Shown piece by piece: positions 10,252-29,585 of a DNA stretch of 64,000 nt; within the stretch, counting starts at the first letter, position 1; each line of letters opens with the position of its first letter. Made by a program: the position numbers and the translations under genes. The notes beneath the pieces were generated by a model. The model was given only the letters and a program-made list of their open reading frames with translations, did no database searches and was not told where the DNA came from. The stretch is from Bacilli bacterium. Its GTDB lineage: Bacteria; Bacillota_I; Bacilli_A; RF39; UBA660. The stretch is from contig JAZAUS010000008.1 of NCBI GenBank assembly GCA_036342255.1, forward strand, positions 7,661 through 71,660. The letters run 5' to 3'.

Positions 10252-10260
10252 GGAGTTAAT

Positions 10261-12115: not shown

Positions 12116-12184
12116 GTAACCGAATCTATTAGATTTTTGGTTCTTAGTACTTTGTTATCGCTAGTAACAAAGTACTTTTTCTTT
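12116..12184 (+). ncRNA. Small RNA candidate between ImmA and DUF4417 genes
   Basis: TTGAAA-16-TGATATAAT (12082-12109), then AACCGAATCTA..hairpin and a perfect 12-bp stem AGTACTTTGTTA/TAACAAAGTACT + UUUUCUUU. The terminator works only in the plus orientation. Confidence 0.4.
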
Positions 12185-12194
12185 ACAATCAATT

Positions 12195-12776
12195 TTATAT
12201 CACCTCTTCTTTCTTAGTTAACTGTTCATGATTAACATCAAACTGTTTAACTAATCTTCTTTCATAGTCTTTGAGAAACAAAGAATATCTTTTCCATTTA
12301 ATAAATCTAACCATTGAATAGTAGCCACATGCCATTGAGGTATTAAATTTTAAGGCTAAATCTATTGGGTCAACTAAACTAAATAAATTAACTAATGGTG
12401 GTGGTGCAATAATATAAACACCAAACCATTCAGCTTCATTTTCAGCTAAAGTGCATTCACATGTATGTTTTAATTCAATATGTCCTATTTCATGAAATAT
12501 AGTGGTTCTTATTCTTTCTGGAGTTAAAGAATCATTATATTCTATTATTCTTTCACCATTGTGGAAATAATTCAATCCATTTGGAAATCTTTCACAAATT
12601 ATTTTCATTTCTTCTTCAGTGTATTTATCAGTATACTTTATTAATACATACTTTCTTTTTTTACATATTTCAAATGGATTAATTGGAATAGTGTGTATAT
12701 CACATTCAACTAATGTTTTTACTACTTTTTTCTTAATATATTCATATCTTTCATCTCTGAGTCTAATTTTAGACAT
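12195..12776 (-). CDS. ImmA/IrrE-family zinc metallopeptidase
   Basis: HEIGHIELKH (HExxH) in a ~190-aa protein directly downstream of an XRE repressor gene. Confidence 0.8.
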   Translation of the reverse strand: MSKIRLRDERYEYIKKKVVKTLVECDIHTIPINPFEICKKRKYVLIKYTDKYTEEEMKIICERFPNGLNYFHNGERIIEYNDSLTPERIRTTIFHEIGHIELKHTCECTLAENEAEWFGVYIIAPPPLVNLFSLVDPIDLALKFNTSMACGYYSMVRFIKWKRYSLFLKDYERRLVKQFDVNHEQLTKKEEVI

Positions 12777-12790
12777 AAATTCCCTCCTGA

Positions 12791-13117
12791 TTATTTGTTT
12801 TTTAAGATAATTCTCATCAGTTCATCGTTTTGTTTATTAGAATAATTTTTAGAATTTCTTGCAAGTAATCCTTCCATTTCATTAAAGCTGATTTCTTTAT
12901 TAAATTCTTCTTTGTCTTTTCTACCTAATAAGTAATCTGTTGTTGTATGTAGAGCAGTGGCAAGATTGCATATTGTTTCTCCATGTGGAATTCTATCTCC
13001 TTTCATATATCTTGATAATGCAGCTTCGGTAATTCCTACATCTTGGGCAAGATCTTTTTGTTTGATATTTTCTCTTGCAAGAAGCTCTCTTAATCTTTCT
13101 ACGAATTTTTCTTCCAT
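12791..13117 (-). CDS. XRE-family helix-turn-helix transcriptional regulator
   Basis: KQKDLAQDVGITEAALSRYMKGDRIP is a classic XRE HTH. Palindromic operator in its promoter. Confidence 0.85.
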   Translation of the reverse strand: MEEKFVERLRELLARENIKQKDLAQDVGITEAALSRYMKGDRIPHGETICNLATALHTTTDYLLGRKDKEEFNKEISFNEMEGLLARNSKNYSNKQNDELMRIILKNK

Positions 13118-13170
13118 ATTATGTGGTTTCCTTTCTCAGTAAGATGACTTTACTCCTCTTACTTACCATT

Positions 13171-13200
13171 AGTATAATACAAAAATTATACTTTTGTCAA
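13171..13200 (-). promoter_or_regulatory. XRE gene promoter with overlapping 8-bp inverted repeat operator
   Basis: TTGACA (13195-13200), then AGTATAAT-N6-ATTATACT (13171-13192) spanning the -10 region. Confidence 0.55.
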
Positions 13201-13237
13201 CTAATTTGAGCTTAAAATTTATTTTTAAAACCCAGAA

Positions 13238-13864
13238 TTATTTTTCTGGGTTTATGTTAAATAAATATTTATCTGGTAATAGTTGGAATTGGTCATCACT
13301 TTTACTAAAGTGATGATCTTGTTTATCTTCTATATATACTTTTATTCTATTAGTTTCTATAGCTTTTAATAGATCTATATAATCTATAGATTGGTCATAT
13401 TCTCCATATATAAATTTAATAGATTCTCCTTTAAAGGATAGAGCTCCTTCTTTAGTTTTATGATAATTATACATTAGGGGACCATTTACTAGAGCCATTC
13501 TTTTTATTTTAGGATATTTATATCCATACCAGGCTCCTATTAGAGCACCATTGGAGAATCCTAAATAATATATTTTATAGTCTTTAAATATGTTAGCATA
13601 GTCTTCTATAATAGTCATGGCGTTATCTAAAGGGTTATGTCCATCAAAGGGATTTGATGAACATATAACACTACAGTTATATTTATTATTTAATCTTTTA
13701 GCCATCTTTATATATTTATTATTATATCCATATAAAGATCCATTCTGACCTGCTTTAATAAATACTATAGTATTATTACCATTTATTATTCCATAATCTA
13801 TTATTATATTATTCATAAACTTACTATGTATTTCTTTATCAAATACTAATTCTTCTTTAGACAT
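13238..13864 (-). CDS. Alpha/beta-hydrolase fold protein
   Basis: Start reset to MSKEELV (AGGTGA-N5-ATG at 13864). Nucleophile elbow GFSNG, then GEYDQS and QDHHF as candidate Asp/His. Confidence 0.55.
   Translation of the reverse strand: MSKEELVFDKEIHSKFMNNIIIDYGIINGNNTIVFIKAGQNGSLYGYNNKYIKMAKRLNNKYNCSVICSSNPFDGHNPLDNAMTIIEDYANIFKDYKIYYLGFSNGALIGAWYGYKYPKIKRMALVNGPLMYNYHKTKEGALSFKGESIKFIYGEYDQSIDYIDLLKAIETNRIKVYIEDKQDHHFSKSDDQFQLLPDKYLFNINPEK
13259..13306 (+). repeat. Direct repeat copy B (inside the 3' coding end of hydrolase gene 13238-13864)
   Basis: Partner of 10205-10251. The two copies bracket the 3-kb XRE/ImmA/DUF4417 module. Confidence 0.7.
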
Positions 13865-13868
13865 ATAT

Positions 13869-13898
13869 ATCACCTATATTGATTATAACATGAAAAAA
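13869..13898 (-). repeat. 30-nt identical promoter/leader block, copy 1
   Basis: Minus strand TTTTTTCATGTTATAATCAATATAGGTGAT, identical to 14838-14867. Confidence 0.8.
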
Positions 13899-14894: not shown

Positions 14895-16826
14895 TTATTC
14901 TTGATTTAATTTTTTTAACAATATTTCTAACATTTTATCACCATGTTCTTTACTTAATTGTTCTTTCCATTTTTTGTTATCATCTTTTGTTTTTATGTAA
15001 CTGGCCATAATTCTTAGTTTTAGACTTCCTTTATCTATTTGATTCTTATATGAGGCAACTTTTGCACTTGGTGCATCATTAGATAATTCTGAGTTAAATG
15101 ATTTTGAAACGAGACATAAATTGCCAAAATAATTTAATTCTTTTTTATTCTTCCATTCATCAAAGCCTTTGGGATTTCGTGGATAAAAGTGCTCTACTGA
15201 ATTTCTAAATTCAAATTCAAATTTATTATATTGTTTTTCTTTATTATTTTTCCATAATAAATAATCTAAATAATTAAACAATATATGATGAATGTCTACC
15301 CCTTCATAAAAATAATTGTTTTCTTTATTAATAGTATAATTATTATTGTCTTTTGATTTATTAAAATCTTTTATTATATTAATAATATTGTTAATAATTA
15401 TTTCCTCTATTTTATCTTCATACTCTTGATTATTTATATTATCAATAGTATTTAAATATTGTAATGCTTCTGTTATCCAGTGCATTACTTTTGGAGATGT
15501 ATACGATACTCTTAATGCGGCTTGCATCATTATTGAGTTTTTTGATATTGATTTCCAAGTTGGGGATTTCGAACTTGATTTTCTTAATATATCTATACTC
15601 CATTGTCCATCTTTATTTTCATTTGTATATTTTCTCTTTAAAATATAGGAATCAAATAAATATCTAGATTTTAATAGTAAGTAAATGAATTTTAGAGAAA
15701 AATCTTCTTTTGGATTTTTTTTATTTAATTTTAAATAATCTAAATTCTTTATAACTTTTTCAAAGCTCTCTATTAGTTTGTTTTCATCTAATAGATCGTT
15801 TAATATATCATCTTCATTATATTCTGGTTTTATTTCTTCTCGTACAAATACTTTTAGAATGTGTAATAAAAATATTGGATATTTTATTATACTTTCATAT
15901 TTGATTTCTTTATCTTTATCTTCATATTTGGTTATTATTCCTTCTTTACTGTCAGATAAATCTTCAATTATTTTTTTATAATTATTTGTGTTGTTTTTAA
16001 TATCATTAATTGAACAAGTTTTTGGTTGAAATTCAATGTTCTTATTTAAATTATCATATAATTCATCAAAGCTATTTATTATGAATTTGTTCCAATTATC
16101 TCCAAATATTTTTCTTCTTATTTCTGGTGTAAAATTCATTTGTACATATGAATTCATATCAGAACATGCTTCCCATATTTCTGAAAATATTTTTCTTTTA
16201 ATATTTCCTTTTGTTTCGTCATTTTTGTCTATAAAATTTAGTAATCTACTTTTAATTATATCTGTATTTAGTAGTTGCTCACCTCTTGTATTCATTATTT
16301 CAAAATAATGATTTAAATCTGTTTTTTCTGGAACTTCTGTTAGTATTAATTTTGTTCTTTCTAATTTTTGTTTTAACTTATCTTTATCTATTTGTTTAAT
16401 TGTTTCGTTGATATATTTTGCTTTTTCTATGATACTTATATCATATTGTTTACTTATTTCTTTTTTATCTATTAATTTATTTAAATCCTTTAGTGTTTTT
16501 GTTGATTTTTCTCTTAGGCTAAAATGTAGGGTATCTTTTATTGGAAGATTTAAACATTTTAATATGATGTATAGCGTTGTCAATCTTTGTTGACCATCTA
16601 TTATTTCATATTTACCATCATTATTCTTATGTGTTACCATTATTCCTAAATAATATGTTTTTTCTTTGAAATCCATTATGTCTTCAAATAATCTATCTAT
16701 TTGTTCTTCTTCCCATTCATATGATCTTTGATAAATTGGTATTATAAAATCCATATTTTTATCAAAGATACTTTTTTCTTTTTCTAATATATAAAGTTCA
16801 TCTATTTTATCATTATTTATTTTCAT
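14895..16826 (-). CDS. DUF262 + DUF1524 (GmrSD-like) type IV restriction-type nuclease
   Basis: Start reset to MKINNDK (GGTGA-N5-ATG). N-terminus IYQRSYEWEEEQ and IDGQQRLTTL (ParB-like DGQQR). C-terminus VEHFYPRNP..GNLCLVSKSFNSELSN (His-Me finger, DUF1524). Confidence 0.8.
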   Translation of the reverse strand: MKINNDKIDELYILEKEKSIFDKNMDFIIPIYQRSYEWEEEQIDRLFEDIMDFKEKTYYLGIMVTHKNNDGKYEIIDGQQRLTTLYIILKCLNLPIKDTLHFSLREKSTKTLKDLNKLIDKKEISKQYDISIIEKAKYINETIKQIDKDKLKQKLERTKLILTEVPEKTDLNHYFEIMNTRGEQLLNTDIIKSRLLNFIDKNDETKGNIKRKIFSEIWEACSDMNSYVQMNFTPEIRRKIFGDNWNKFIINSFDELYDNLNKNIEFQPKTCSINDIKNNTNNYKKIIEDLSDSKEGIITKYEDKDKEIKYESIIKYPIFLLHILKVFVREEIKPEYNEDDILNDLLDENKLIESFEKVIKNLDYLKLNKKNPKEDFSLKFIYLLLKSRYLFDSYILKRKYTNENKDGQWSIDILRKSSSKSPTWKSISKNSIMMQAALRVSYTSPKVMHWITEALQYLNTIDNINNQEYEDKIEEIIINNIINIIKDFNKSKDNNNYTINKENNYFYEGVDIHHILFNYLDYLLWKNNKEKQYNKFEFEFRNSVEHFYPRNPKGFDEWKNKKELNYFGNLCLVSKSFNSELSNDAPSAKVASYKNQIDKGSLKLRIMASYIKTKDDNKKWKEQLSKEHGDKMLEILLKKLNQE

Positions 16827-18195
16827 TGTTGTCACCTTCTTTATTTATTAGTTTTAATATTTCATATATTCTATACCATCTATGTTCTTTGGTGATGTTT
16901 TCTTTTATTTTTATATCTAAATTATATAAATCACTATGATAGATAGAATTTTTTATTATTATAAACATTGGAATTTCGTTTGTATATTTAGAATCACTAT
17001 TTATTCCTTGGGCATATTTGTTTATACTTGATAGATTTACCATTTCTAAATCAAATCTTAGTGATAATGCCCACATTAATAGTTTCTTTACTATTATAGG
17101 ATCTAGTCTATTAAACCTATCATAATAATATAATAAAGAACAATAGTATAATCTTATAATATATTTCATTCCTATGGTATTGTCATTTTCTTTTATTTGA
17201 TTTATTAATTCATTATTTGTTTTTTGGATTTCTATTCCTATTTCATCATTTAGATATATACTTAATAATTCATAAATTAGTCTATGATTTTTCTTCATGC
17301 ATTCATTTATTTCTTCTATTTTTTTAAAATATATATCTACCATTTCAAAAAAAGGTATTCCTGAATAGAATGGATGTCCTATTTCATAATGATTCTTATT
17401 TATATTTGTATAATTATAGTTTTCTTTGCATAAATCTATGGTTACACCTTTATAATTATTAATTTCATGGATAGTAAATGGTTGATAATTTTTGTGTGAA
17501 CTCCAATTTAAAATAGGATATAAATAATATGAGAACAGGTTATTTATTTCTTCTGAATTTCTGTTTTCCCATGATTTTACTTTTGAAGCTATTATTTTCA
17601 TTAACTTTTTATTATTTGAATTTGAATAGTTTTCTACTGCTTCTCTTAGATGAAATGCTTTTAATAAATCATGGGGATTTAACTCTTTTCCACGTGAGTT
17701 TTGAGAATCAAATAATTGAAATGCTTCATCTAGTGATTCAACATATACTACTAATACTTCTAGTATGTTTCTTATTGCATAATTAATTATTGTCTTTGAG
17801 TTTTTCTTGTTTTTTACCCAATTATTAATTACTGATATGTTCTCTTTTATTTTTGTTATTGTTTCTTTATTTGAAAACTTTTCTTCTAATAAAGTACTTC
17901 TAAAATTATTATCTATAATTATTTTTATAAGAATTAATGTTATTATTCTTTGTTGGCCATCTACTATTTCATATTTATTTTGTTTATTCTTATATAGTAT
18001 TATTGTACCTATTCTATATTTTATAGGTTTATTATTTTGTCCTTTATCATAATAGGCTTTTTCTATATCGTTTAATAGTGTTATAACACTATTAAATGAC
18101 CATTTATATGGTCTTTGATAGTTAGGTATTATTAAATTTTTCTTTGATAATAATGTTTTAACACTTATTATTTCAGTATTTTTTTTATTACTCAT
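16813..18195 (-). CDS. DUF262 (ParB-like NTPase/nuclease) protein, partner of the downstream GmrSD-like gene
   Basis: NYQRPYKWS and VDGQQRIITL. No DUF1524 motif. 14-nt overlap with the next gene. Confidence 0.75.
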   Translation of the reverse strand: MSNKKNTEIISVKTLLSKKNLIIPNYQRPYKWSFNSVITLLNDIEKAYYDKGQNNKPIKYRIGTIILYKNKQNKYEIVDGQQRIITLILIKIIIDNNFRSTLLEEKFSNKETITKIKENISVINNWVKNKKNSKTIINYAIRNILEVLVVYVESLDEAFQLFDSQNSRGKELNPHDLLKAFHLREAVENYSNSNNKKLMKIIASKVKSWENRNSEEINNLFSYYLYPILNWSSHKNYQPFTIHEINNYKGVTIDLCKENYNYTNINKNHYEIGHPFYSGIPFFEMVDIYFKKIEEINECMKKNHRLIYELLSIYLNDEIGIEIQKTNNELINQIKENDNTIGMKYIIRLYYCSLLYYYDRFNRLDPIIVKKLLMWALSLRFDLEMVNLSSINKYAQGINSDSKYTNEIPMFIIIKNSIYHSDLYNLDIKIKENITKEHRWYRIYEILKLINKEGDNNENK

Positions 18196-18387
18196 TGTAC
18201 TAACCTCTTTATAATTTATTCTTTATTATAATTATAACATAGATTTTTATTTGAATATTATTATATTCAATATAATTAATAAAATCATCTTTTTATTTAT
18301 TCTTTATAAAAAGATAGTAAATTATTTGGATAATGCTCTCTTCAAAGGGACGAATTTTTGTTCGTTTTATACCTGTGATAAATGATT

Positions 18388-18412
18388 AAATCCCCTATAT
18401 TTTAGGGGATTT
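18388..18412 (-). terminator. Hairpin terminator downstream of the five-gene operon
   Basis: AAATCCCCTA-N5-TAGGGGATTT. The U-tract is weak on the minus strand (AAUCAUUU). Confidence 0.45.
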
Positions 18413-18481
18413 AAATTTTTAATTATTTATAAAAGTTTATCACTATTTATAAATCTATATAGGTAAAAGTATAGGTAGCAA

Positions 18482-18877
18482 TTAAAATGGCCAATCTTCA
18501 TTATTTATGAAATTATTACTAGTGACAGGAATTTCTTCAACAGATTCATTATTAGATTCTACTTCTTCCATATCATTTTCTTCTGAAGAAACAATTTCAG
18601 TTTTATCTTCTAAAGAATCAGAGTTTTCTTTATATAATTCTAATAATTCTTCATCACTACAAATACTATTTATAATATTCTCTAAAGTAGTTTTATATAG
18701 TGCTAATTCAGGATTGTTTGAAGTTACTTCATATTCTGTTTTCTCACCATTTTTCTTCAAATCCAAGAAAGATTTAGATATTTCCTTAATATTATTAAAA
18801 TTCAATTTCTTTATTTCTTCGCTAATTTTATAGTAAATATTGTCATCATTATCTTTTTTTAATATTTCAATTTTCAT
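18482..18877 (-). CDS. Small highly acidic protein with SSB-tail-like C-terminus (EDWPF)
   Basis: 131 aa. C-terminal half is Glu/Asp/Ser/Asn rich and ends ..NNEDWPF. 11-nt overlap with the PHP-ATPase gene. Confidence 0.55.
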   Translation of the reverse strand: MKIEILKKDNDDNIYYKISEEIKKLNFNNIKEISKSFLDLKKNGEKTEYEVTSNNPELALYKTTLENIINSICSDEELLELYKENSDSLEDKTEIVSSEENDMEEVESNNESVEEIPVTSNNFINNEDWPF

Positions 18878-21332
18878 ATGTTAATTCTCCTCCATATATT
18901 TGATATCTTTTCTTAATATTTCGTTTACCACCATCTAATATTAAAGCTACCTTATTAGTTGCCACAAGTTTTTCTTCTTCAACATATTCAAGGCAATAAG
19001 AATTATAAGATATCTTATTATCATTATTAACAGATGCTTCAATAATCATATTAGCATCAGAATTTATTGCTACTATCGCATCATGAGATGTAACTATAAT
19101 TTGTTTTTCAATCTTTTGTGTTTTAATAAAGGTAGATAATGTTTCAGAAATAAAACTTTTATCTACATCATTTTCAGGTTGATCTATTAATATGATATCT
19201 GGTTGTTGTTCTTTGATTAATCTATTGAAATAAAATTCTATAGATTTTTTTGCAATATCACCTTTATTAATATCAGATATTAATTTCCAACCATTATTTT
19301 CGTCCAAATATAATTCTATATTTCTTGGAATATCACTTGCATCTGTAATTATTTCACTTAGATTAATATTAATTTCATTTAAAGATTTAATCAAATTCTT
19401 TGTAGAATCAGAATCAAGCAAATTAATTTTAGATAAGTTTAACGATCTGATTTTACCTTTAATTTTATCCAAATTAAATAATTTTGAATCTTCTAAATTA
19501 GTATTATTTACATTAAACAAATTATCATTTAAAGTTAAACGAGCATAATCATTAGAATTAGTTTCAATCTCTTTCTTCAATGATTCATATGGTAAACTCA
19601 ATTGAATTTCAGCTTCTCTTTTCTCATTAAGAAGTGTTCTTTTTAATAAATTAATCAATTTACCAAATTCACTTGTGTATATTTGTTCCCTAGACTTAAC
19701 TGTTTTTTCTTTATTTCCTAGTTTATTAATTGAATCCTCAATTTGTTCATTAATAACATCAACAAGTTTTTTTTCAAACTTGATTTGTCTAATTTTCTTT
19801 TTCACATTTAATGATTCAGTCTTCAAACTTTCTATTATTTCATTATATTTAAAAATTAAGTCATCAATCTTTTCTTTATCAACATCTAACGTCAATAATT
19901 CTTTAATTGAATTAAAATAATTAACAATTTTTTCTTGTTGACTTAATAATTCATTAATTCTTTTTAATTTAAACGTTTGAGTTTTAAATTCACTTTCATC
20001 AAAAATATATTTATTTAAATTAAAAGCATAATTAGAAATTTTATTTTTTGACAAAAAGTCTATAGCCGAATAAATATTTTGAAGTATCCTTTCCCCAACT
20101 TCAATATTATTTTTAATATCCTTTATACATTGATAATAATTATTTACATCATTTTTATAACGATTAATTATAACATTAGCATCATTATCATTATTTATGC
20201 CAAATTTTTCAGCTATTGATAGTTCATCATCTTGGCTCTTTAATATTTCGGAATAAATATTAGGAATTTCAATAATTTTTATATTTTTATTATCTATCTC
20301 ACTATCGTATTTAATATCCAAAACTGATGATTTTCCAACTTTCTTTTCATATGGATTAACTCCTTCTTTAGCACCATCTTTGGATGATTTAGAAGCAGCG
20401 GTTAACCCAATATTTTTTATTTCATAAAGAATCTGATTTAATAGTAAAGTTTTACCAGATCCAGAATTTCCAATTATTACATTTAATCCTGGTGACAATT
20501 TAATTAATGACTCTTCAAGAGATTTATTATTTTTAACCCTTATTTCTTTAATATAACGTTCTCTATTAATAATTTGATTCTCTAAAGATAATCGAGTATC
20601 TGAATTTCTTAAAGAAATTTCTAAACCCCTGTATGTTGGTAAAGCGTTAATTGAATATGATCCTTTTTCAAGAATTTTTTTCTTGCGATCCTCATCGTTA
20701 TCAAATTTATAATCACTGCCCACATATGCTGGAGTATCTTCACCAATTTCACTTGCATTTAAAACTTTATGAATTTTTTCTACCATAGAATACAAATAAT
20801 AGTCTTTTGTATTTTCAAATAGTATTGGAAAACCTGTGCCACTAATCAACGCTTTTATAACCCAATCGATTGTAGATGATTCAATTTTATGATTTAATAA
20901 TCCTTTATCTTTTATTGCATGAGGAATAAAAATAAATTCAAGATTTTCATGAAGATCACAAAAATCTTTTTTATTAAGCAAAACATTATTCCCTTTTGAT
21001 ACTCGCATATTAGTTAATTTATCCGAAAATTTTATTATATCAACATTAGGACTAAGTATTGATATAGCGTGAAATTCTAAACTATCAAATTTATAATCTA
21101 TCTCAACTCCAACTAAATGATTAATATTAAGCATGTCAGATATAATTGCTTGCTTAACATGTTCACTAATATCAATATTATTATGACATGTTACAGCTTT
21201 TAAATCCACATTTTGTTCCTTAAGCCAATTATAATAATCTCTATGAGTATAATTATCTTTAACTTTTTTTCCTTTACAATCTATATCATGGTTGGTATGT
21301 TGATGTAAATCAATTCTACTCCAATATTCCAT
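18867..21332 (-). CDS. PHP phosphoesterase domain fused to Rad50/SMC-like ABC ATPase with long coiled coil
   Basis: IDLHQHTNHD, EFHAIS, PHAIKDKG (PHP). GNSGSGKT Walker A, ~350 aa of heptad-rich sequence, then DIILIDQPENDVD Walker B and VTSHDA. Confidence 0.75.
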   Translation of the reverse strand: MEYWSRIDLHQHTNHDIDCKGKKVKDNYTHRDYYNWLKEQNVDLKAVTCHNNIDISEHVKQAIISDMLNINHLVGVEIDYKFDSLEFHAISILSPNVDIIKFSDKLTNMRVSKGNNVLLNKKDFCDLHENLEFIFIPHAIKDKGLLNHKIESSTIDWVIKALISGTGFPILFENTKDYYLYSMVEKIHKVLNASEIGEDTPAYVGSDYKFDNDEDRKKKILEKGSYSINALPTYRGLEISLRNSDTRLSLENQIINRERYIKEIRVKNNKSLEESLIKLSPGLNVIIGNSGSGKTLLLNQILYEIKNIGLTAASKSSKDGAKEGVNPYEKKVGKSSVLDIKYDSEIDNKNIKIIEIPNIYSEILKSQDDELSIAEKFGINNDNDANVIINRYKNDVNNYYQCIKDIKNNIEVGERILQNIYSAIDFLSKNKISNYAFNLNKYIFDESEFKTQTFKLKRINELLSQQEKIVNYFNSIKELLTLDVDKEKIDDLIFKYNEIIESLKTESLNVKKKIRQIKFEKKLVDVINEQIEDSINKLGNKEKTVKSREQIYTSEFGKLINLLKRTLLNEKREAEIQLSLPYESLKKEIETNSNDYARLTLNDNLFNVNNTNLEDSKLFNLDKIKGKIRSLNLSKINLLDSDSTKNLIKSLNEININLSEIITDASDIPRNIELYLDENNGWKLISDINKGDIAKKSIEFYFNRLIKEQQPDIILIDQPENDVDKSFISETLSTFIKTQKIEKQIIVTSHDAIVAINSDANMIIEASVNNDNKISYNSYCLEYVEEEKLVATNKVALILDGGKRNIKKRYQIYGGELTYEN

Positions 21333-21346
21333 TTAATACCTCCATA

Positions 21347-23227
21347 CTAGCTGTTGATTATATTATTAATATATTTTCTTAAATTATCGTCAGTACAATA
21401 AACATAACAACCTTTCATACCCCTAGTCATTAGTGTTCTATATGTATTTTTTATTATTAAATCAGCAATATTATTAGCTTCTTCTTGGCCTTTTTCTTTA
21501 ACTATTTTATTAATTCCTTTTAATGATTGATCTGTCTTAGCTCTTTTTGTATAATCAGTTATTATGTGTCCGTTTTCATATCTCATGTCATCTCCAATAA
21601 TAACTCCTATATAATCAAATTCTAATCCTTGGCATGTATGAATGCATCCAGCTTCATTTATGGAATCTTTATCAATTGCCCATGTTGTAGAACTACCTAA
21701 GTTCCAACTTATTTCAAAATTATATTCTGGTATTACTATGTCATGAATGTCTGTTTTATTTTTTCCTTCACTTATCCAGTTCCAGCAATATCCTGCTACT
21801 AATCTAGATTTATTATTTTTTTTATTTTTTTCTTCAATAGCTTTTCTTAATTCATTAGGATTATCAAATACTTTAAAGTCATAGTCAAATCCATCTATAT
21901 CAAAATTAGCAGTTTCTTTTATTTCTAGTAAGTTATTTAGCCATGCTATATAGCCATCAGAACCATTGCATCTAAATTGACTGTCTAATTCATAAGTATA
22001 TATGCCAGCATCTAATTCATTAGCGTATTTCTTAATTAAATCTTCACTACCAATATCTTTAAGGGTTACTTTTTGATTTTCATCTATAAAGAATATTGAA
22101 AAATTAGATGCATTAATTATTTCTTTAATTTGGTTTTCACCCTTGTTTTGAAATAAACCTGACTTTTCATTTAATCTATGTGCTTCATCTACTATTAATA
22201 CATCTAATTTATTGCTTTCTTCATCTACAAAATTACCTGATCCTTGAAATAGATGATTAATATATGTTTGGGTGTAATCTCCTCTTAACTTTGTGGAAAA
22301 AACATTTCTTGGAGCAGCATTTTTTGTTACATAGAAACATGTCATGTTTCTATTATTAAATTCTACTAATAGATTAATTGCTAATACTGATTTACCTGTA
22401 CCTGGTCCACCTCTTACTATCATTACATTCTTTTTATTACTAGCCACTGTATCAATAGCATTACTTAATGCATATTCATATATAATCTTTTGTTCATCAA
22501 TCATATAGAATTCTTTATTACCTTGTAACATTTTTGATAAAGAATCTTGAAGCATTTTAGATGGCCTAATTCTTCCATGATCTATTTCATAGAGAATGCT
22601 TCCATCATCTCCATCTTCTATATATCTTTTAATAAAATCTCTTAGTTTAATGACATCATTATGTCCAAATAATGGGGCTATATTTGTATATTCTTTATAA
22701 TTATCAGATAGTAATGTATCGTCATTATCGAAGTAATAATTATGTAAATAAGCACATGGTACTATATTAATATTTTTTAATTGGACTGATTCATTATAAT
22801 CTTTAATTAAATTAGCATAAGTCATTGCTTGGTATGATGGATGGTTGACATCTCTTAACCCTCCGCCTGTATATGTATTTACCTTATAAACACCATCTAA
22901 TTTACCTACTTCAGTTGCTTTATCCCATTGTTTTAATTCTACTATTACAACATTAGATTTATTTTTGTTATAGCCTGATATCATAAAGTCTATTCTACAT
23001 CCAGTTGGGGGTATATTATACTCAATAGCAATACCTGTATTATCTGGTATATCTTTATCATTTAATACTCCTCTCATATATTGCATAGAATTTTTCCATG
23101 AATTAAATTCTGGAGGACTTGGTCTTCTTTTAATTTTTTCTATATATTTATTTCTTATTTTATCCGCTATTAATCCTATATCTACATCATTAATAAAATC
23201 TTTTTTTATTCCTTCATATACTAACAT
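21347..23227 (-). CDS. DUF2075-type protein: PD-(D/E)XK-like N-domain + SF1-like helicase/ATPase
   Basis: RIDFMISG..VVIVELKQW, GGPGTGKS, LIVDEAHRL, SQFRCNGS, CQGLEFDYIGVIIG, RTLMTRGMKGCYVY. Confidence 0.8.
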   Translation of the reverse strand: MLVYEGIKKDFINDVDIGLIADKIRNKYIEKIKRRPSPPEFNSWKNSMQYMRGVLNDKDIPDNTGIAIEYNIPPTGCRIDFMISGYNKNKSNVVIVELKQWDKATEVGKLDGVYKVNTYTGGGLRDVNHPSYQAMTYANLIKDYNESVQLKNINIVPCAYLHNYYFDNDDTLLSDNYKEYTNIAPLFGHNDVIKLRDFIKRYIEDGDDGSILYEIDHGRIRPSKMLQDSLSKMLQGNKEFYMIDEQKIIYEYALSNAIDTVASNKKNVMIVRGGPGTGKSVLAINLLVEFNNRNMTCFYVTKNAAPRNVFSTKLRGDYTQTYINHLFQGSGNFVDEESNKLDVLIVDEAHRLNEKSGLFQNKGENQIKEIINASNFSIFFIDENQKVTLKDIGSEDLIKKYANELDAGIYTYELDSQFRCNGSDGYIAWLNNLLEIKETANFDIDGFDYDFKVFDNPNELRKAIEEKNKKNNKSRLVAGYCWNWISEGKNKTDIHDIVIPEYNFEISWNLGSSTTWAIDKDSINEAGCIHTCQGLEFDYIGVIIGDDMRYENGHIITDYTKRAKTDQSLKGINKIVKEKGQEEANNIADLIIKNTYRTLMTRGMKGCYVYCTDDNLRKYINNIINS

Positions 23228-23233
23228 ATTTAT

Positions 23234-24010
23234 TTACTCACTTCCCAATAATTTTGCATTTTCTACATTAAAACCATCTATTTTTAAGCTATTTATAATT
23301 TTATTTACAGGAATTATCATGGTGTTAATTCTTTGCATATACTTGTTATTTAATAAATCTTCATAATAAACTTCTACTATTATTTTTCTATGATTATTAT
23401 TATTTAAAGTTAAAATTAAATCAATACAAACTGTTTCATTTTTCTTTATAAAGGATTGGTATCCATTAAGTGAAAACTTTCTGTCTTCCTTTTCGTCAAC
23501 TTTTATTAAAATATTTATATTTTTGCTATGATTTAAACCTATATTTTCCATTTTAAAGTATAAATGATATGTATCACCATATTCACCAATTTCTATAGTG
23601 TGATTATAGTTATACCTTGAACTTAAACTATGAAATGAATAATTAAATATTGGAGCATTTTCAATTCTCTTATCCTCCTTATTACTTTCAATTTGAGTTT
23701 TTATTTGCTTCAAAGTTATCAAAACAACAAATACACCACTTATGATGGCACCAATGATTCCAATAATATATGAACTGATAAATTCGAACCATCTATTCAT
23801 ATTTATTCCATTTGCAATTCCTAGTGTAGTAGGCACATTATATCTATCCAATAAATAAACAATAATTGGTATAAAATATACGAATAAAAACAAAATATAT
23901 AAAACTCGTTCAGTCGGACTTTGGGATTCTTTGTACATTTTAACTCCTTGAATCACTGATACAATTGTAATAATTAATACTATGATATAACTTACAATCT
24001 TTATTGCCAT
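23234..24010 (-). CDS. Membrane protein: 3 N-terminal TM helices + ~130-aa soluble C-terminal domain
   Basis: TM segments IVSYIIVLIITIVSVIQGV, VLYILFLFVYFIPIIVYLL, YIIGIIGAIISGVFVVLITL. C-terminal part has alternating beta-like pattern, no motif. Confidence 0.55.
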   Translation of the reverse strand: MAIKIVSYIIVLIITIVSVIQGVKMYKESQSPTERVLYILFLFVYFIPIIVYLLDRYNVPTTLGIANGINMNRWFEFISSYIIGIIGAIISGVFVVLITLKQIKTQIESNKEDKRIENAPIFNYSFHSLSSRYNYNHTIEIGEYGDTYHLYFKMENIGLNHSKNINILIKVDEKEDRKFSLNGYQSFIKKNETVCIDLILTLNNNNHRKIIVEVYYEDLLNNKYMQRINTMIIPVNKIINSLKIDGFNVENAKLLGSE

Positions 24011-24018
24011 TCTACCAC

Positions 24019-24333
24019 CTACAACTTATTATATTTTGTACTTTTTCCTTTTGATTTCTCTATTGGATATTTCTTAGCTGTCTTTTCCATCTTATCTAAA
24101 ACTATTTGTTTAGGATCTACACCTAATTTATTTGCCATTTGTATACAGTAATTTAAAACATCTGCAAGTTCTTCTTTTACTTCTTCTAAATCGTAATTAT
24201 CATTCCACTGAAAACATTCTAATAACTCTCCTGCTTCAATACAAATGCTTTTAGCTAGATTAACTGGAGAATGAAATTGATCCCAATCTCTTTCTTCATT
24301 AAATTTTTCAATCTTTTCTTGTAATTCTTTCAT
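24019..24333 (-). CDS. MazG-like (YpjD/DCTPP1-type) nucleoside triphosphate pyrophosphohydrolase
   Basis: Start reset to MKELQEK (AGGTGA-N5-ATG). FHSPVNLAKSICIEAGELLECFQW..EELADVLNYCIQMANKLGVD is the all-alpha MazG signature. Confidence 0.8.
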   Translation of the reverse strand: MKELQEKIEKFNEERDWDQFHSPVNLAKSICIEAGELLECFQWNDNYDLEEVKEELADVLNYCIQMANKLGVDPKQIVLDKMEKTAKKYPIEKSKGKSTKYNKL

Positions 24334-24350
24334 AGATATCACCTGATTTA

Positions 24351-24360
24351 ATTATAACAT
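24351..24360 (-). promoter_or_regulatory. Extended -10 promoter (ATGTTATAAT) of the five-gene MazG..acidic operon
   Basis: Follows terminator 24444-24468. The -10 ends 17 nt before the ATG, so the leader is very short and begins at the SD. Confidence 0.55.
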
Positions 24361-24443
24361 AAGATTACAGTTTAACCGTAATTTCTAGTTCTATAATTTT
24401 CATTTTGCTCTCTTCCACCCTGATAGAACAATATACACTACAT

Positions 24444-24481: not shown

Positions 24482-25822
24482 TTATGAATAGAATTTTATT
24501 AAATCTTCTAGTTCAATCATTATATTACATTCTTTTAATCTATCAATTCTACTTCTGTATAGCTTTGTAATTATCTCGCGTTTCTCCTTAGGTGTTGCCA
24601 AATGTATTTTTCTATGACAAATAGGACATAAAGACACAATATTTGATTCTACATCTAAACTATATAAGAAATATGATTGTAATTGAATGGGAACTAGGTG
24701 GTGCGCTTCAACATAGTTTTCATTGTTTGCTTTAGAAGTAAAAGTCATATGACTATTATCAAATTCGCACAGATAGTTTGCAACCGCTTTAGCATTAGCA
24801 GCTTTTTGTGGATCTCTTCTAGCAGTGGCCTTTGAAAACTTGTTTGCCAATGGAACAGGTAAATCTAATATTTTTAATAGTGGTTCTGGATCTAAATTAT
24901 TTGATTGTGCTATATATAACTCGTCGTATATATCTTCAAATATGCTATTATTATCAGTTTCACTAATAATATTGGAATCTACAGTAACAATTGACGGTTC
25001 AACAATCATTTTTGCACTTTCAGAATCAACCATACCTGTTTTTGTTAATTCATCAATAATAGTATCAGGAATGTTTTCCTTATTTTTTAAATTATTATTA
25101 ATCTTATCTAATATCATTTTAGCATTTGTTGTTAAATAAAATTTAGGGAATCCATGTGATTCAAATTTATCATCGTTATTTACATCAATCAATTTAAGTT
25201 GTCTACATGTACTTAATATTCTGTAATTTATGTTTGGAGTATAATTACCATCTGATGGATTTTTTCCCCTACTAGAAAAGCCATAAAGGAGATAAATATC
25301 TGTACATATTTTAATTCTTTCTTCTTTGCTAGGCACCATTATTTCAAAATCTGAATAGCCATCTGGATAAGAAACAATATAACCGTTGATCAATCCTTCT
25401 CTTAGGGTAGCAAGAATATAATTTTGAAACATATTAATATCATCTAGAGAACATATTGATTCCAACTTATTTATAATATAATCTTCAATTGGAATACTTC
25501 CATAAATAAATTGTATGAACTCTTTAGTAAATTTATAATTTCGTGCCTCATCTGGATCAGTTAAAAATTTTATTTCAATCATTCCACGAATATTATCGGC
25601 TATAGTACTTTGGCCAGTCTCTGACAACTTACATATTTCATCCTCAATTTCTTTTTGACTAACAGTAGTCCTTTTTGTTTCAAGATACCACTTTTTAAAC
25701 TTTTCAACACAACTAAAAATATTTCTTGTTAAACTTTTCGCTGGTCTTAATCCATCTTCAAATATTAATTTATTTTCATTTTCTTTATAAAACTTTAAAA
25801 AATAATCAAAATTAAACTCCAT
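24482..25822 (-). CDS. HNH-motif endonuclease, probable restriction enzyme of the adjacent C5-MTase pair
   Basis: Start reset to MEFNFDYF. C-terminus EAHHLVPIQ..SNIVSLCPICHRKIH. Own TGATATAAT promoter after the MTase terminator. Confidence 0.65.
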   Translation of the reverse strand: MEFNFDYFLKFYKENENKLIFEDGLRPAKSLTRNIFSCVEKFKKWYLETKRTTVSQKEIEDEICKLSETGQSTIADNIRGMIEIKFLTDPDEARNYKFTKEFIQFIYGSIPIEDYIINKLESICSLDDINMFQNYILATLREGLINGYIVSYPDGYSDFEIMVPSKEERIKICTDIYLLYGFSSRGKNPSDGNYTPNINYRILSTCRQLKLIDVNNDDKFESHGFPKFYLTTNAKMILDKINNNLKNKENIPDTIIDELTKTGMVDSESAKMIVEPSIVTVDSNIISETDNNSIFEDIYDELYIAQSNNLDPEPLLKILDLPVPLANKFSKATARRDPQKAANAKAVANYLCEFDNSHMTFTSKANNENYVEAHHLVPIQLQSYFLYSLDVESNIVSLCPICHRKIHLATPKEKREIITKLYRSRIDRLKECNIMIELEDLIKFYS

Positions 25823-25859
25823 TACTTCACACCTCAATGATAATTATATCATATGATAG

Positions 25860-25882
25860 AAAAAAGGGCCATAAATGGCCTC
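25860..25882 (-). terminator. Terminator after the second methyltransferase gene
   Basis: GGCCA-TTTA-TGGCC + CUUUUU. Confidence 0.6.
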
Positions 25883-26932
25883 TTATTCGTATAAATAATC
25901 TACTATTGCCTTTGCAACTTGTTCTGCCAATAGAGGTGGAACAGCGTTTCCAACTTGTTTATATTGATTGACCTTTGATCCACTAAAAATATAATTATCT
26001 GGAAAAGATTGAATTCTAGCTGCTTCTCTTACAGACAAAATTCTATTTTCTTTATAATGAAAATATGTCCTATGACCTGTATCAATTGTATTACTTTGAT
26101 TTTTACTGTTCATTCTTCTTAATAATGAACTATATTTTCTATTACCTCTCAAGTTTTCTGGTAAATCCTTTATACTACCACCCTGAGGTACATGAGAAAT
26201 TAATTTTTTTGTTTCTTCAGTATGAAATGTTTGTTCATGATTATATACCATATCACAATTTTTTCTCATTTTCTTTTGGTATTTTGATATTGCGTCTGTT
26301 TTGTATTTTGAAGGATCATCATTTTTATCTAGTGATGGTAAATCAGATATTGCTTCTTCGCAAGTTACTTTATAATTGAATTTTTTAGGGAATTTAAATG
26401 TTCCTTTATCTAAATTCTCTTTAATTCCAATAAAAAATACCCTTACTCTGTTTTGTGGAACACCATAATCAGAAGCTACTAATTTATCTAGATAAACATT
26501 ATAACCAATTTTTTTAGCTCTTCTAATAATATCCTCTTTTACTTCACCATTTTTCATTGACAAAATACCTGTTACATTTTCAATAACAAAAAAATCAGGA
26601 TTAATTATTGATAATGTTTTAAAATATTCTTTATATAATTTATTTCTTTCATCATCCTCAGATCTTCTACCAGCTAAACTAAAGCCTTGGCAAGGCGGAC
26701 CACCAATTACACCAGAAACATGTTCATTAACATATTGTTTTATGAATTTTTCATCAATTTCAGCAATATCTTTGACAACACCAACTTTATTCTTTCTATT
26801 GTTATTAAAAGTATCTATTGCATTACTCCACATGTCGATAGCAAGAACACTTTCAAAATTTTGTTTTTCAAAGCCTAAGGTTAGACCACCGGCCCCACAA
26901 AACAAATCAATAACCTTTCTTTTACTCTTCAT
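25883..26932 (-). CDS. DNA (cytosine-5)-methyltransferase
   Basis: DLFCGAGG (I), GGPPCQGFS (IV), ENV (VI), QNRVRVFFIG (VIII), GNAVPP (X). Confidence 0.9.
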   Translation of the reverse strand: MKSKRKVIDLFCGAGGLTLGFEKQNFESVLAIDMWSNAIDTFNNNRKNKVGVVKDIAEIDEKFIKQYVNEHVSGVIGGPPCQGFSLAGRRSEDDERNKLYKEYFKTLSIINPDFFVIENVTGILSMKNGEVKEDIIRRAKKIGYNVYLDKLVASDYGVPQNRVRVFFIGIKENLDKGTFKFPKKFNYKVTCEEAISDLPSLDKNDDPSKYKTDAISKYQKKMRKNCDMVYNHEQTFHTEETKKLISHVPQGGSIKDLPENLRGNRKYSSLLRRMNSKNQSNTIDTGHRTYFHYKENRILSVREAARIQSFPDNYIFSGSKVNQYKQVGNAVPPLLAEQVAKAIVDYLYE

Positions 26933-28181
26933 TTTCTAAAACCTCCAATATCATATTAGAAACCGCGTTAGCCATTAACGGAGGCACAGCGTTTCCAACT
27001 TGTCTTAATTGTTCACCCTTATTACCGATAAATATAAATCTGTCTGGAAAGGATTGAATTCTAGCAGATTCTCTTGCGGAAGGAACTCTATTGAAGATAG
27101 GATGAAAATATACAGCATGACCAGTATCAATTGTAGTTGATTGACCTTTTCCGTCTAATCTTCTCATATAGTTTGAATGTCTATTATCTCTTTTCGAAGG
27201 AAATAATTCCTCAGGAACATCTTTCCAATTACCACCTTGTGGTACATAGCTTATTCTCTTTTGAACATCTTCATTAGGATAATTAATACGATGGTTAAAA
27301 ATATAATTAGTTCCATCATGCATCTTTTTTAAATACTCATTTGTAATTGAATCAGATATTGAATATACTTCATTTGTTTCATCTTTTGTGGCATTTTTTT
27401 CAATCTCGTATAAATCACATAATGCTTCATCAACAGTAGTCTTTTTATCAACCTTAAATTTATTAATACCGTTAAAATCAACTTTCCCAATATCATTTCT
27501 TATACCGACAAAAACAGCTCTCATTCTTTTTTGCGGAACACCATAATCAGAGGCATCTAATATTTTATATTGGACATTATATCCCATTTCTTCCATCAAT
27601 TCACAAATTTTCTTACGAGCAAACCCATTTTTATTAGTAAGTATTTGCCTAACATTTTCTATCATTATTGCCTTAGGTCTTAATTCTTTTACAAATCTTA
27701 AAAATTGAAAGAACAATTTGTTTCTTGGATCATCTTCCAATTTTTGATGCCTATTCAATGCAGAAAAGCCTTGACATGGTGGCCCACCTACTATTATATC
27801 TACATCTTTAAATCCAGTATCTTTAACTTCTATTTTTGTAATATCTCCACAAATAACGTTTGCCTGTGGAAAATTATACTTAAATGTTTTACATGCCGCT
27901 TTATCAAAATCAATTGCTCCTACAATTTCCATACGACTATTATGTTTAAAGCCTTCACTAATTCCACCACATCCACTAAACAAATCAATAACTCTATATT
28001 TTTTAAATTCACTTTTGCTATATAAGCCATCATCAATACTTTTTCTTATTTTATCCGAAAGACATTTTCCCTTATACTCTTTATCTATTTTATCTATTAC
28101 TTCAAAAGGTAATTTAATTTTAACTTCCTTACCTTGAATTGATTTTCTTCCGCTTCCTTCTCTTTTACCACCCTTATTCAT
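26922..28181 (-). CDS. DNA (cytosine-5)-methyltransferase with ~60-aa basic N-terminal extension
   Basis: DLFSGCGG, GGPPCQGFS, ENV, QKRMRAVFVG, GNAVPP. N-terminus GGKREGSGRKS. 11-nt overlap with the second MTase. Confidence 0.9.
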   Translation of the reverse strand: MNKGGKREGSGRKSIQGKEVKIKLPFEVIDKIDKEYKGKCLSDKIRKSIDDGLYSKSEFKKYRVIDLFSGCGGISEGFKHNSRMEIVGAIDFDKAACKTFKYNFPQANVICGDITKIEVKDTGFKDVDIIVGGPPCQGFSALNRHQKLEDDPRNKLFFQFLRFVKELRPKAIMIENVRQILTNKNGFARKKICELMEEMGYNVQYKILDASDYGVPQKRMRAVFVGIRNDIGKVDFNGINKFKVDKKTTVDEALCDLYEIEKNATKDETNEVYSISDSITNEYLKKMHDGTNYIFNHRINYPNEDVQKRISYVPQGGNWKDVPEELFPSKRDNRHSNYMRRLDGKGQSTTIDTGHAVYFHPIFNRVPSARESARIQSFPDRFIFIGNKGEQLRQVGNAVPPLMANAVSNMILEVLENEE

Positions 28182-28198
28182 AATGTCACCTCATTATA

Positions 28199-28227
28199 AT
28201 TATATTGAAAACGCAGACTTTTTTCAA
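28199..28227 (-). promoter_or_regulatory. Promoter of the two-methyltransferase operon
   Basis: TTGAAA-17-TATAAT, followed by GAGGTGA SD and the ATG at 28181. Confidence 0.55.
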
Positions 28228-28245
28228 TAGTTTTTTTAAAAAAAT

Positions 28246-28272
28246 GTAAAAAAAATGCATTATATAAATGCA
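28246..28272 (-). terminator. Terminator after the DUF262-HNH gene
   Basis: TGCATT-N5-AATGCA + U8. Confidence 0.6.
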
Positions 28273-28278
28273 CATTTC

Positions 28279-29484
28279 TTAATTATCACTTTTAGATGAA
28301 TTACAACTTGGACATAAAACTTGTCCATTTTCAATTTCTGTTTTTCCACCTTTACTCCATGGAACTATATGATCAGCTTCCCAATCATTCCAGTCACAAT
28401 GTTTTTTACATTGTTGACATATACCTTTATCACGTCTATATATAACTTGTCTTTGTGCTTCATCAAATGATCTTTGTGAATCCTTTAATGGTAATTTTTT
28501 TACTGTAGCTAAAAGTGATTCTTTTAATACCTTATGCCTATAAGTTAACGATTCATATGTATCAGAAGAGTTTGAAATCCATCTTTGATATAAAACTAAT
28601 ACTGGATCTTGTTCTTCTGCTTCTTTCATTCTATCTAATGTTCTATTGTTTTCAAATTCAATAAACCAGTCGTAGATTTCTTTTTCACGCCCCCTAATGT
28701 CATAATTAGGCATTAAATCCATAATTAATAGAAATAATGAAATAACGCTATACCTTTGTAATTCTGGAGCTTTATATTCAAACATTGTATTTAAATAATC
28801 TAATATTCTTCTAATATTTTTTGCTTGTTCGCAATTTTCATCAAAATCTGTATTATTCCAATACATATCATTTAAATCTTTATCTTTAACATTTGTTATT
28901 GTTCCATTTATAGCAAGCAAGCACATTTGAGCGGCAATCAAATCATATGTAAATCTACTATCTTTAAAATTAACCTTATCAAAAAATTGGTGAGAAGAAA
29001 CTGTTTTTACAAAATCTCTCATTTTACTTGGTATAGCATTTCGTTTTTCTTGTGCTTTTAAAGATGTACCATTTTGTAGACGTAAAAACATTTCCCTTAT
29101 TTCTTCATCATTTTTATCCAAAATAACAAAATCCAAATTATATGTATCAATTATATCAGATATTTCTGGTTCTAATTCGCTATATTTCTTATTTTTTATT
29201 TCAATATCGTTAATAGGATCAGCATCTTTAGGTAATGGATATTCATCATCATAGAATGACCAAATGGCACGTATTCTTTGTTGACCATCAACAACATCAT
29301 ACTTATTTTTATCTACTTCGTGCAAATATATTTTTGGAATATCATAATCATGTAATATTGAATCAATCAATAATTGTTTTTGATTTTTAGTCCAGACAGA
29401 TGGTCTTTGATAATCTGGATTTGTATTAATTTGTGTTCTTCTTTTATTTAAAGATAAAAGTGGCCATGTGGTTTTATTTAGCAT
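28279..29484 (-). CDS. DUF262 (ParB-like DGQQR) - HNH fusion nuclease, type IV restriction-like
   Basis: Start reset to MLNKTTW (AGGAGGAATAAT-ATG at 29484). DYQRPSVWT, VDGQQRIRAI. C-terminus ADHIVPWSKGGKTEIENGQVLCPSCNSSKS. Confidence 0.75.
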   Translation of the reverse strand: MLNKTTWPLLSLNKRRTQINTNPDYQRPSVWTKNQKQLLIDSILHDYDIPKIYLHEVDKNKYDVVDGQQRIRAIWSFYDDEYPLPKDADPINDIEIKNKKYSELEPEISDIIDTYNLDFVILDKNDEEIREMFLRLQNGTSLKAQEKRNAIPSKMRDFVKTVSSHQFFDKVNFKDSRFTYDLIAAQMCLLAINGTITNVKDKDLNDMYWNNTDFDENCEQAKNIRRILDYLNTMFEYKAPELQRYSVISLFLLIMDLMPNYDIRGREKEIYDWFIEFENNRTLDRMKEAEEQDPVLVLYQRWISNSSDTYESLTYRHKVLKESLLATVKKLPLKDSQRSFDEAQRQVIYRRDKGICQQCKKHCDWNDWEADHIVPWSKGGKTEIENGQVLCPSCNSSKSDN

Positions 29485-29585
29485 ATTATTCCTCCTTACA
29501 ATTTTAATATTATTATAACACAATAGTTGCTTTTTATTGATAATAAATATTTTGATTTTTCTATTTCTTAATTAGATTTATTCTT

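Follow-up and report, generated by a model that had tools for sequence, protein, structure and literature searches.

Does a tightly packed row of defence-like genes in one genome amount to one defence system? The question is raised by five co-directional genes on the minus strand of a contig of a Bacilli bacterium (lineage UBA660; contig JAZAUS010000008.1, positions 7,661 to 71,660; the whole stretch of 64,000 nucleotides is called the window below, and coordinates are given within it). In order of transcription the genes encode a MazG-like nucleoside triphosphate (NTP) pyrophosphohydrolase (g1), a putative membrane protein (g2), a DUF2075 protein (g3), a PHP phosphoesterase fused to an ATPase (g4) and a small acidic protein (g5). 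A first-pass annotation had read them as one candidate defence system. The answer that we favour, with a probability of about 0.65, is that the array holds two independently mobile or separable defence modules in one transcription unit of one island. Module A (g1-g2-g3) is a widespread operon of a MazG-like and a DUF2075 gene with a swappable middle gene, and module B (g4-g5) is a self-contained pair. The comparison set comprised about 80 related loci overall.

Genomic contexts of the two proposed modules

The context of g4 was taken from some 45–50 loci, obtained by pattern scans and exact look-ups and all searched with the five proteins. A scan of genome contigs yielded only 6 loci, so the context was drawn mainly from metagenome contigs. 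With g4 as query, 110 clusters at 90% identity were found, most of them in gut Bacillota (such as Faecalibacillus, Stoquefichus and uncultured Bacilli); the only match in phages, by tblastn, was a weak one at the C-terminus. Wherever a locus includes the 3' end of g4, a g5 homologue lies directly downstream and overlaps the end of g4. Among ~45 loci with a g4 homologue g5 was the only constant companion; g3 was nearby in a minority and in varied order, g1 was rare and g2 never stood in the array. The first-pass annotation had itself named co-occurrence outside this genome as one of the points on which the five-gene system would stand or fall, and across these ~45 loci the five genes do not travel together.

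In almost every locus the immediate neighbours of the g4-g5 pair are themselves defence-type genes. In Faecalibacillus they are NOV_C and a HinfI restriction–modification (R-M) system; in a clade with 58% identity to g4, a Fic gene, a DUF2075 gene and a serine recombinase follow one another beside the pair, the Fic neighbour being of the PDC-S72 type. Other loci carry BREX PglZ/BrxL, type I and type II R-M, Pycsar PycC, DUF2130, or SIR2 with DUF87 (SIR2-HerA-like), and Band_7 and TIR genes adjoin a g4 relative of 26% identity. With neighbours that change from locus to locus, the pair bears the mark of a self-contained defence candidate of two genes. The identities of g4 and g5 homologues to the window proteins co-vary (Pearson r=0.89, n=22 pairs), and on this sequence measure the two genes co-evolve. 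Distant g4-like genes (~26% identical) also have an overlapping downstream open reading frame (ORF), of 95–105 residues (L055:1678-1995 and L060:2616-2903, L numbers denoting compared loci). Between these two small partners homology is evident (32% identity, E=7e-7), but none to the g5 family was detected by hhalign (probability 0.9%).

For module A, at least 8000 clusters matched g3 at E<=1e-10, and more than 100 of these exceed 80% identity to g3; no relatives were found in the viral contigs scanned. A MazG-like gene of 104 residues, 70–85% identical to g1, lies upstream of the DUF2075 gene in 7/7 distinct contexts sampled, and g4 is mostly absent from them. The gene between the two is different in each of the seven, with tight junctions of 0–12 nucleotides. 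The slot holds no gene in L067 (a 9-nucleotide gap), a Cys-rich secreted protein of 103 residues in L055, proteins of 129, 293 and 369 residues in L080, L053 and L072, AbiU in L062 (437 bits to the PADLOC model), and the three-helix protein g2 in the window. The slot proteins are mutually unrelated, and g2 is one occupant of this variable position. Full-length AbiU (Pfam AIPR) sits between the MazG-like and DUF2075 genes in L062 (4748-8878), L063, L065 and L066, with gaps of 2–10 nucleotides, which shows that the slot is able to hold a validated abortive-infection gene. The minimal MazG-DUF2075 pair of L067-L070 stands among ordinary metabolic genes.

The mosaic nature of the array is seen directly in the DNA. 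Three blocks match different sets of loci, namely the MazG gene with the −10 region (~24020-24364), the DUF2075 gene (~21371-23244) and g4-g5 (18624-21370), and between the first two lies the g2 segment, which is unique to the window and matches no compared locus. Within the array or slot of the other MazG-DUF2075 and g4 loci sampled, g2 was not found; a g2-like gene (37% identical) is present in the L080 island, outside the slot.

Some further observations were made around module A. The 369-residue slot gene of L072 (3882-4991) is split into ORFs of 156 and 213 residues in L073 (3883-4991), and a slot gene of the L072 type is shortened to 303 residues in L078; with the MazG and DUF2075 genes intact, this points to decay of slot genes. 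Directly upstream of MazG-AbiU-DUF2075 in L062, a gene at 3065-4498 encodes a 477-residue protein with SLFN_AlbA_2 and HATPase_c_4 domains, the domain pair of Photorhabdus TrlG. Thus AlbA_2 and the g3-type helicase, which correspond to the two halves of eukaryotic Schlafen group 3, are encoded by different genes here, and islands of this kind are home to TrlF-like PHP-ATPases as well. A DUF3427 PLD-helicase (PADLOC type IV methyl-directed restriction endonuclease, 383 bits) and a small NUDIX protein lie directly upstream of MazG-slot-DUF2075 in L055 (2184-5320) and L080 (1107-4242), and both gene orders of this pair are seen. Another recurrent gene, DUF2130, follows DUF2075 in L080 and g4-g5 in L019.

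The g4-g5 pair

The gene g4 (18867-21332, minus strand) encodes 821 residues, with an N-terminal PHP phosphoesterase domain (20583-21332, minus strand; residues 1 to ~250) followed by an SMC/Rad50-like ATP-binding cassette (ABC) ATPase (18867-20582, minus strand), the latter delimited from the AlphaFold2 model, Foldseek and motifs. The PHP residues H10, H12, H30, H50, E77, H138 and D207 are invariant in the g4 family, and the N-terminal profile of the family matched the PHP phosphoesterase of PDB entry 9etk (E=0.002) with the HxH, H and E motifs aligned. In the ATPase part, Walker A (GNSGSGKT, residues 288-295), the Walker B/D-loop (LIDQPENDVD, 715-724) and the H-loop (TSHDA, 748-752) are followed by an invariant C-terminal signature, LDGGKxNIKKRYQIYGG (799-815), which is common to TrlF and Ppl. 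The AlphaFold2 model (pLDDT 77) has an ABC head that is split by an antiparallel coiled coil (~residues 383-575), and the top Foldseek matches were the heads of SMC, condensin, MukB, JetC and Rad50 (E 3e-11 to 1e-7). The predicted fusion of a PHP domain with a Rad50/SMC-like ATPase thus stands, whereas the coiled coil, given earlier as ~350 residues, is ~190 residues in the model. Pfam made no call on g4, and PADLOC, NCBIfam and PHROG none at family level; in a sequence search of the PDB the g4 profile found only generic ABC and spurious matches, as did g3. From its architecture and signature, g4 is a distant member of the Ppl/TrlF/PDC-M49A superfamily.

The 131-residue product of g5 (18482-18877, minus strand) is the acidic partner of g4. 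Its conserved core (residues 1-90) has the order beta-beta-beta-alpha-beta-alpha-alpha and is modelled with pLDDT >90, and the acidic tail (residues 91-131) is disordered and not conserved. The C-terminal EDWPF, which had been singled out for mutation, is confined to the closest relatives and was rejected as a conserved functional motif. An exhaustive profile search of 1.84 billion clusters placed the g5 family in 54 representative clusters, all of stand-alone small proteins, and all homologues are acidic (isoelectric point 4.0-5.5). There was no family-level call for g5 in PADLOC, Pfam, NCBIfam or PHROG, and Foldseek found no significant match to the model in PDB or BFVD (best E 0.7 and 0.1).

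The invariant PHP ligands, the complete set of ABC motifs and the TrlF/Ppl signature lead us to propose that g4 is a nucleotide-gated nuclease acting on DNA ends. E. coli Ppl is reported to be a single-gene 3'-5' exonuclease on single-stranded DNA that needs a free 3'-OH, with NTP inhibiting its PHP domain as well as its NTPase domain (2026 review, PMC12904381). By analogy with Ppl, g4 would probably sense and degrade phage DNA ends under nucleotide control. It would bring an SbcCD/Mre11-Rad50-like logic into one polypeptide, with the Rad50-like head and coiled coil dimerising on DNA. The g5 protein, translationally coupled to g4, is predicted to bind g4 as a regulator; it may be an inhibitor or DNA mimic that holds the nuclease off, or an adaptor on the heads or the coiled coil.

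The proteins of module A

The first gene of module A, g1 (24019-24333, minus strand), encodes an all-alpha MazG-like NTP pyrophosphohydrolase of 104 residues from its ATG; an alternative GTG start 9 nucleotides upstream would give 107 residues. It passed the gathering score of Pfam MazG-like PF12643 (72.7 bits, cut-off 27), carries the metal motifs EAGELLE and EELADVL (EXXE / EXXD) and matched a PHROG pyrophosphatase, in keeping with the first assignment. The slot gene g2 (23234-24010, minus strand) encodes 258 residues with three predicted transmembrane segments and a soluble C-terminal domain. The three helices foreseen for it were recovered by hydropathy as hydrophobic segments at residues 1-27, 32-57 and 75-104, and g2 had no match in Pfam, PADLOC, NCBIfam or PHROG.

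The third gene, g3 (21347-23227, minus strand), encodes a 626-residue protein, Nhi-like in its apparent organisation, with a DUF2075/SLFN-g3 helicase of superfamily 1 (SF1). Its assignment as a DUF2075 protein with an SF1-like ATPase held: residues 266-613 matched Pfam PF09848 (DUF2075/SLFN-g3_helicase) at 368 bits, and all motifs quoted for it are present (GGPGTGKS, residues 273-280; VDEAHRL, 346-352; CQGLEFD, 532-538). The PADLOC models AbiO, Nhi and PDC-S41 match g3 partially, at the helicase core; the Nhi model reached 50 bits over model positions 180-386 of 470, which is short of a full-length match. By analogy with Nhi, g3 would probably unwind and cut phage replication intermediates. 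The MazG enzyme would hydrolyse canonical or modified (d)NTPs, and so starve the phage or condition the nuclease.

Transcription signals

The five ORFs were confirmed on the minus strand as first listed, with gaps of 8, 6 and 14 nucleotides and an overlap of 11 nucleotides between g4 and g5. The insulating signals that had been described around them fared unequally. Upstream, the intrinsic terminator of an HNH gene (24467-24449, minus strand; GGCGC-ATAAATAA-GCGCC followed by TTTTTAT) insulates the array from the R-M genes. The extended −10-like box ATGTTATAAT (24360-24351, minus strand) precedes an AGGTG ribosome-binding site and the start codon of g1 (ATG at 24333), and it falls within a stretch of DNA whose conservation extends to other MazG loci. 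Promoter-like hexamers occur at chance level in this AT-rich DNA (57 found vs 59 expected in shuffled sequence, no enrichment), so the box is suggestive and the terminators alone count as evidence. Downstream of g5, a 12-bp hairpin (18386-18414, minus strand) is present as described; it is probably a terminator, although its T-tail on that strand is weak. Overall, the five-gene array is plausibly one transcript in the source genome.

The same 10-mer as in the −10-like box recurs near 18232-18241 (minus strand), ahead of the GmrSD-type pair that starts at 18195. Successive operons of the island may use it in common as an extended −10.

One system, cooperating modules or two modules

Several findings weigh against two separate modules. 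The 14-nucleotide gap between g3 and g4 holds neither a terminator nor a clear promoter, from which g3 and g4 are expected to be co-expressed. Furthermore, four arrangements are seen in which ~5 kb or less separates the modules: (i) DUF2075-g4-g5 adjacent, in the window and in the relative L059 (g4 83% identical); (ii) g4-g5-Fic-MazG and a divergent DUF2075 gene, in L001; (iii) g4-g5-Fic-DUF2075, in the L011 group; and (iv) a distant g4-like gene with its small ORF, a type IV restriction endonuclease, NUDIX, MazG, a slot gene and DUF2075, in the L055 group. In L060 the 3' end of a MazG gene (83% identical) lies 49 nucleotides upstream of a distant g4-like pair. Such proximity is more frequent than expected from random placement, so a functional link may exist. 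As to module A itself, its seven contexts are a small sample drawn from homologues of 81-88% identity only, and the g3 homologue of L011 (70% identical) follows Fic without a MazG gene. The N-terminal PD-(D/E)XK-like motif of g3 (RIDFMISG ... VELKQW, residues 78-101; D80 ... E97-x-K99) is read from sequence only, and residues 1-250 gave no hidden Markov model (HMM) or structure match. As to g4, the last PHP motif is SDY instead of DxH, so that the canonical final His is lacking, and its scores against the nearest family models stay below their cut-offs: 26.3 bits for Ppl (NCBIfam NF042955, cut-off 1000) and 118.1 bits for TrlF (equivalog cut-off 350).

The alternative that survives best among these findings, tentative as it is and clearly behind the two-module reading, is that the modules are separable and are co-selected through cooperation. 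For example, the MazG enzyme would lower the (d)NTP concentration and thereby free an NTP-inhibited, Ppl-like PHP nuclease, or the DUF2075 protein would make 3' ends for g4. The four distinct arrangements, and the MazG gene directly upstream of the distant g4-like pair in L060, argue for such a partnership, as do the NTP inhibition and the need for 3'-OH ends that are reported for Ppl (PMC12904381). In addition, Photorhabdus TrlF is in an operon with the Schlafen AlbA_2-type TrlG (bioRxiv 10.1101/2020.06.02.129163), and DUF2075 is the helicase domain of Schlafen group 3. However, most loci of either module lack the other, and clustering in defence islands yields co-location anyway, with many unrelated systems in the same islands. 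The co-location may therefore be just island crowding, since the intervening genes (the SoFic/PDC-S72-type Fic and the type IV restriction endonuclease) are independent defence candidates.

One integrated system, in which the five products act as sensor, effector and regulator, is very unlikely. The tight spacing, the frame of a single promoter and terminator, and the adjacency of DUF2075-g4-g5 in L059, the closest relative with flanking sequence, speak in its favour. Against this, g2 is absent from all other loci, most g4-g5 loci are without g1 and g3, and most sampled g1-g3 loci are without g4-g5; where the genes do co-occur, their order differs and Fic, type IV restriction endonuclease and NUDIX genes come in between. 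The lack of co-occurrence has already largely refuted it.

The least probable of the readings, a non-immune role in housekeeping or mobile-element DNA maintenance (an SbcCD-like end processor, a repair helicase and a house-cleaning MazG), would fit the minimal MazG-DUF2075 pair among metabolic genes in L067-L070, the classical house-cleaning role of MazG enzymes and the action of SMC/Rad50-like ATPases in repair, but it is at odds with the patchy distribution, the near-identical modules in unrelated contexts, the validated defence systems immediately beside almost every g4-g5 locus, the AbiU gene within a MazG-DUF2075 operon and the adjacent integrases, recombinases and transposases.

The reading of two separable defence modules is thus the one that we retain. 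A wider combined picture can be drawn, which we hold with low confidence: g4-g5 would be an undescribed obligate two-protein relative of Ppl, MazG-[X]-DUF2075 a modular three-part immune operon with a swapped sensor or effector cassette, and their co-location could reflect cooperation, for example by MazG hydrolysis unlocking an NTP-inhibited PHP exonuclease.

The surrounding island

The array belongs to a defence island of ~21 kb on the minus strand that extends from Abi_2 at 8.2 kb to a DUF262-HNH gene at 29.5 kb. The position between an R-M system and GmrSD-type nucleases, among defence-type genes, was borne out. The upstream flank (24482-29523, minus strand) encodes an HNH protein, two Dcm methylases and the DUF262-HNH protein, and the downstream flank two GmrSD-type proteins (14895-18195, minus strand). 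The downstream part of the island, likewise entirely on the minus strand, further contains Abi_2 (8195-9184), an M78/IrrE-type peptidase (12195-12776), and a Bro-N protein, DUF4417 and unannotated ORFs (within 8195-13873). From the M78 and Bro-N genes one may suspect a degraded prophage or an integrative element. The weak-HNH protein directly upstream of the array (24482-25837, 451 residues) has a homologue in L024 (7238-8500, E=6e-21), ~3 kb from another g4-g5 pair, another indication that the cargo of such islands is shuffled between genomes.

Implications

Should g4-g5 prove to be protective against phages, the little-studied Ppl/TrlF PHP-ATPase nucleases would gain a two-component branch, and g5 would be a natural regulator with which to study how such nucleases are kept off host DNA. 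MazG-[slot]-DUF2075 offers a concrete and common address in human and animal gut Bacillota for finding new abortive-infection genes, and it raises the question whether a nucleotide pyrophosphatase is a general partner of Nhi-like (Schlafen-helicase-type) immunity. As a lesson in method, tight operon packing in a single genome does not count as evidence for one system.

Comparison with known systems

The array had been said to match no named system. In line with this, there was no family-level PADLOC or NCBIfam call, and the literature on DUF2075 with MazG, on PDC-M49, and on PHP with ABC ATPase or PHP with Rad50 in defence yielded no paper describing either module. The parts are not wholly undescribed, however, since g3 appears to have a Nhi-like organisation and g4 is a distant relative of the validated Ppl.

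Ppl (Gao et al. 2020) is a single-gene anti-phage protein made up of a PHP domain and an ATPase. Like Ppl (PADLOC PDLC02208, NCBIfam NF042955), g4 has an N-terminal PHP domain and an ABC-type ATPase at a comparable length (821 vs ~890 residues), occurs in defence islands, and carries the C-terminal signature after the H-loop, where the Ppl HMM matches 17/17 members of the g4 family. The two differ in that the PADLOC Ppl model covers only residues 712-811 of g4 (30 bits; the last ~100 residues align), and Ppl is described as a single-gene system, whereas g4 always comes with the coupled acidic g5. The hosts are different as well, Enterobacteria for Ppl and gut Bacillota for g4.

TrlF, which derives from the temperature-restriction locus trlR-trlF-trlG of Photorhabdus (bioRxiv 10.1101/2020.06.02.129163), gave the best full-length architecture match (NCBIfam NF045780; g4 residues 4-688 on model positions 5-747 at 118.1 bits). 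The C-terminal signature is shared, and hhalign of g4 against a plasmid TrlF gave 97.7% probability over the last 100 residues. On enterobacterial plasmids, mostly conjugative ones, genes of the TrlF type turned up in 134 records. The defence context is shared too: on an E. coli IncI plasmid (L071; NZ_AP028312.1, 23097-27995) an 893-residue TrlF family AAA-like ATPase follows directly after a CBASS cyclase and its effector with four transmembrane segments. In contrast to the Photorhabdus locus, neither TrlG (AlbA_2 + HATPase_c_4) nor TrlR adjoins g4 in the window, a TrlG-type gene being seen only in L062, upstream of MazG; conversely, the g5 partner was absent from the one TrlF locus examined. 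The model PDC-M49A, from the multi-gene PADLOC candidate PDC-M49, matched g4 at 41.7 bits in three N-terminal fragments, with weak matches in 16/17 family members, and no PADLOC model matched g5.

An ABC head interrupted by an antiparallel coiled coil, and the coupling to a phosphoesterase nuclease, are features that g4 has in common with Mre11-Rad50/SbcCD, Lamassu LmuB, Wadjet JetC, Gabija GajA, PARIS AriA and Septu PtuA. In g4, however, the nuclease is a PHP domain in cis and not Mre11, Toprim, HNH or Cap4, and the coiled coil is short, with ~95 residues per arm; a CxxC zinc hook was not seen near the apex of the model. The partner genes of Lamassu, Wadjet, Gabija, PARIS and Septu are not present, and the earlier statement that the array contains no Toprim and no Lamassu, Wadjet, Septu or Hachiman gene set is correct. 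HMM matches to PtuA, GajA, LmuB and AriA were weak and fell in the N-terminal or Walker A region of g4. Membership of Gabija, OLD, PARIS, Septu or Lamassu was rejected on account of these weak Walker A-region matches and the absence of Toprim, the HNH protein PtuB, AriB and LmuA/C, and membership of Wadjet because its gene set is not present. Mre11-Rad50/SbcCD was rejected as well: the head fold matches, but the coiled coil is ~190 residues long, no CxxC is seen, and a PHP domain is fused in place of a separate Mre11 or SbcD.

For g3 the closest comparison is Nhi, a single-protein defence of a PD-(D/E)XK nuclease and an SF1 helicase that acts on phage replication intermediates (bioRxiv 10.1101/776245). 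Nhi-like, also a single-protein defence, has no sequence identity to Nhi and was so named by Millman et al. because its domain organisation equals that of Nhi (bioRxiv 10.1101/2022.05.11.491447). The apparent two-part layout of g3, a putative PD-(D/E)XK-type motif followed by the DUF2075 helicase, would be that of Nhi (Bari et al. 2022) and Nhi-like (Millman et al. 2022). The HMM match of g3 to Nhi is partial, and g3 differs by its upstream MazG-like gene and the variable middle gene; neither a MazG partner nor an internal cargo slot was found described for Nhi in the literature.

Defence genes embedded in other defence operons are exemplified by PrrC in type I R-M loci and by the PADLOC 'HEC' candidates. 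The MazG-DUF2075 operon resembles these in carrying unrelated genes, including AbiU, at a single defined site within it; it differs in being made up of MazG and a Nhi-like helicase and not of R-M or Hma genes. What is distinctive of the g4 family, in turn, is its obligate small partner.

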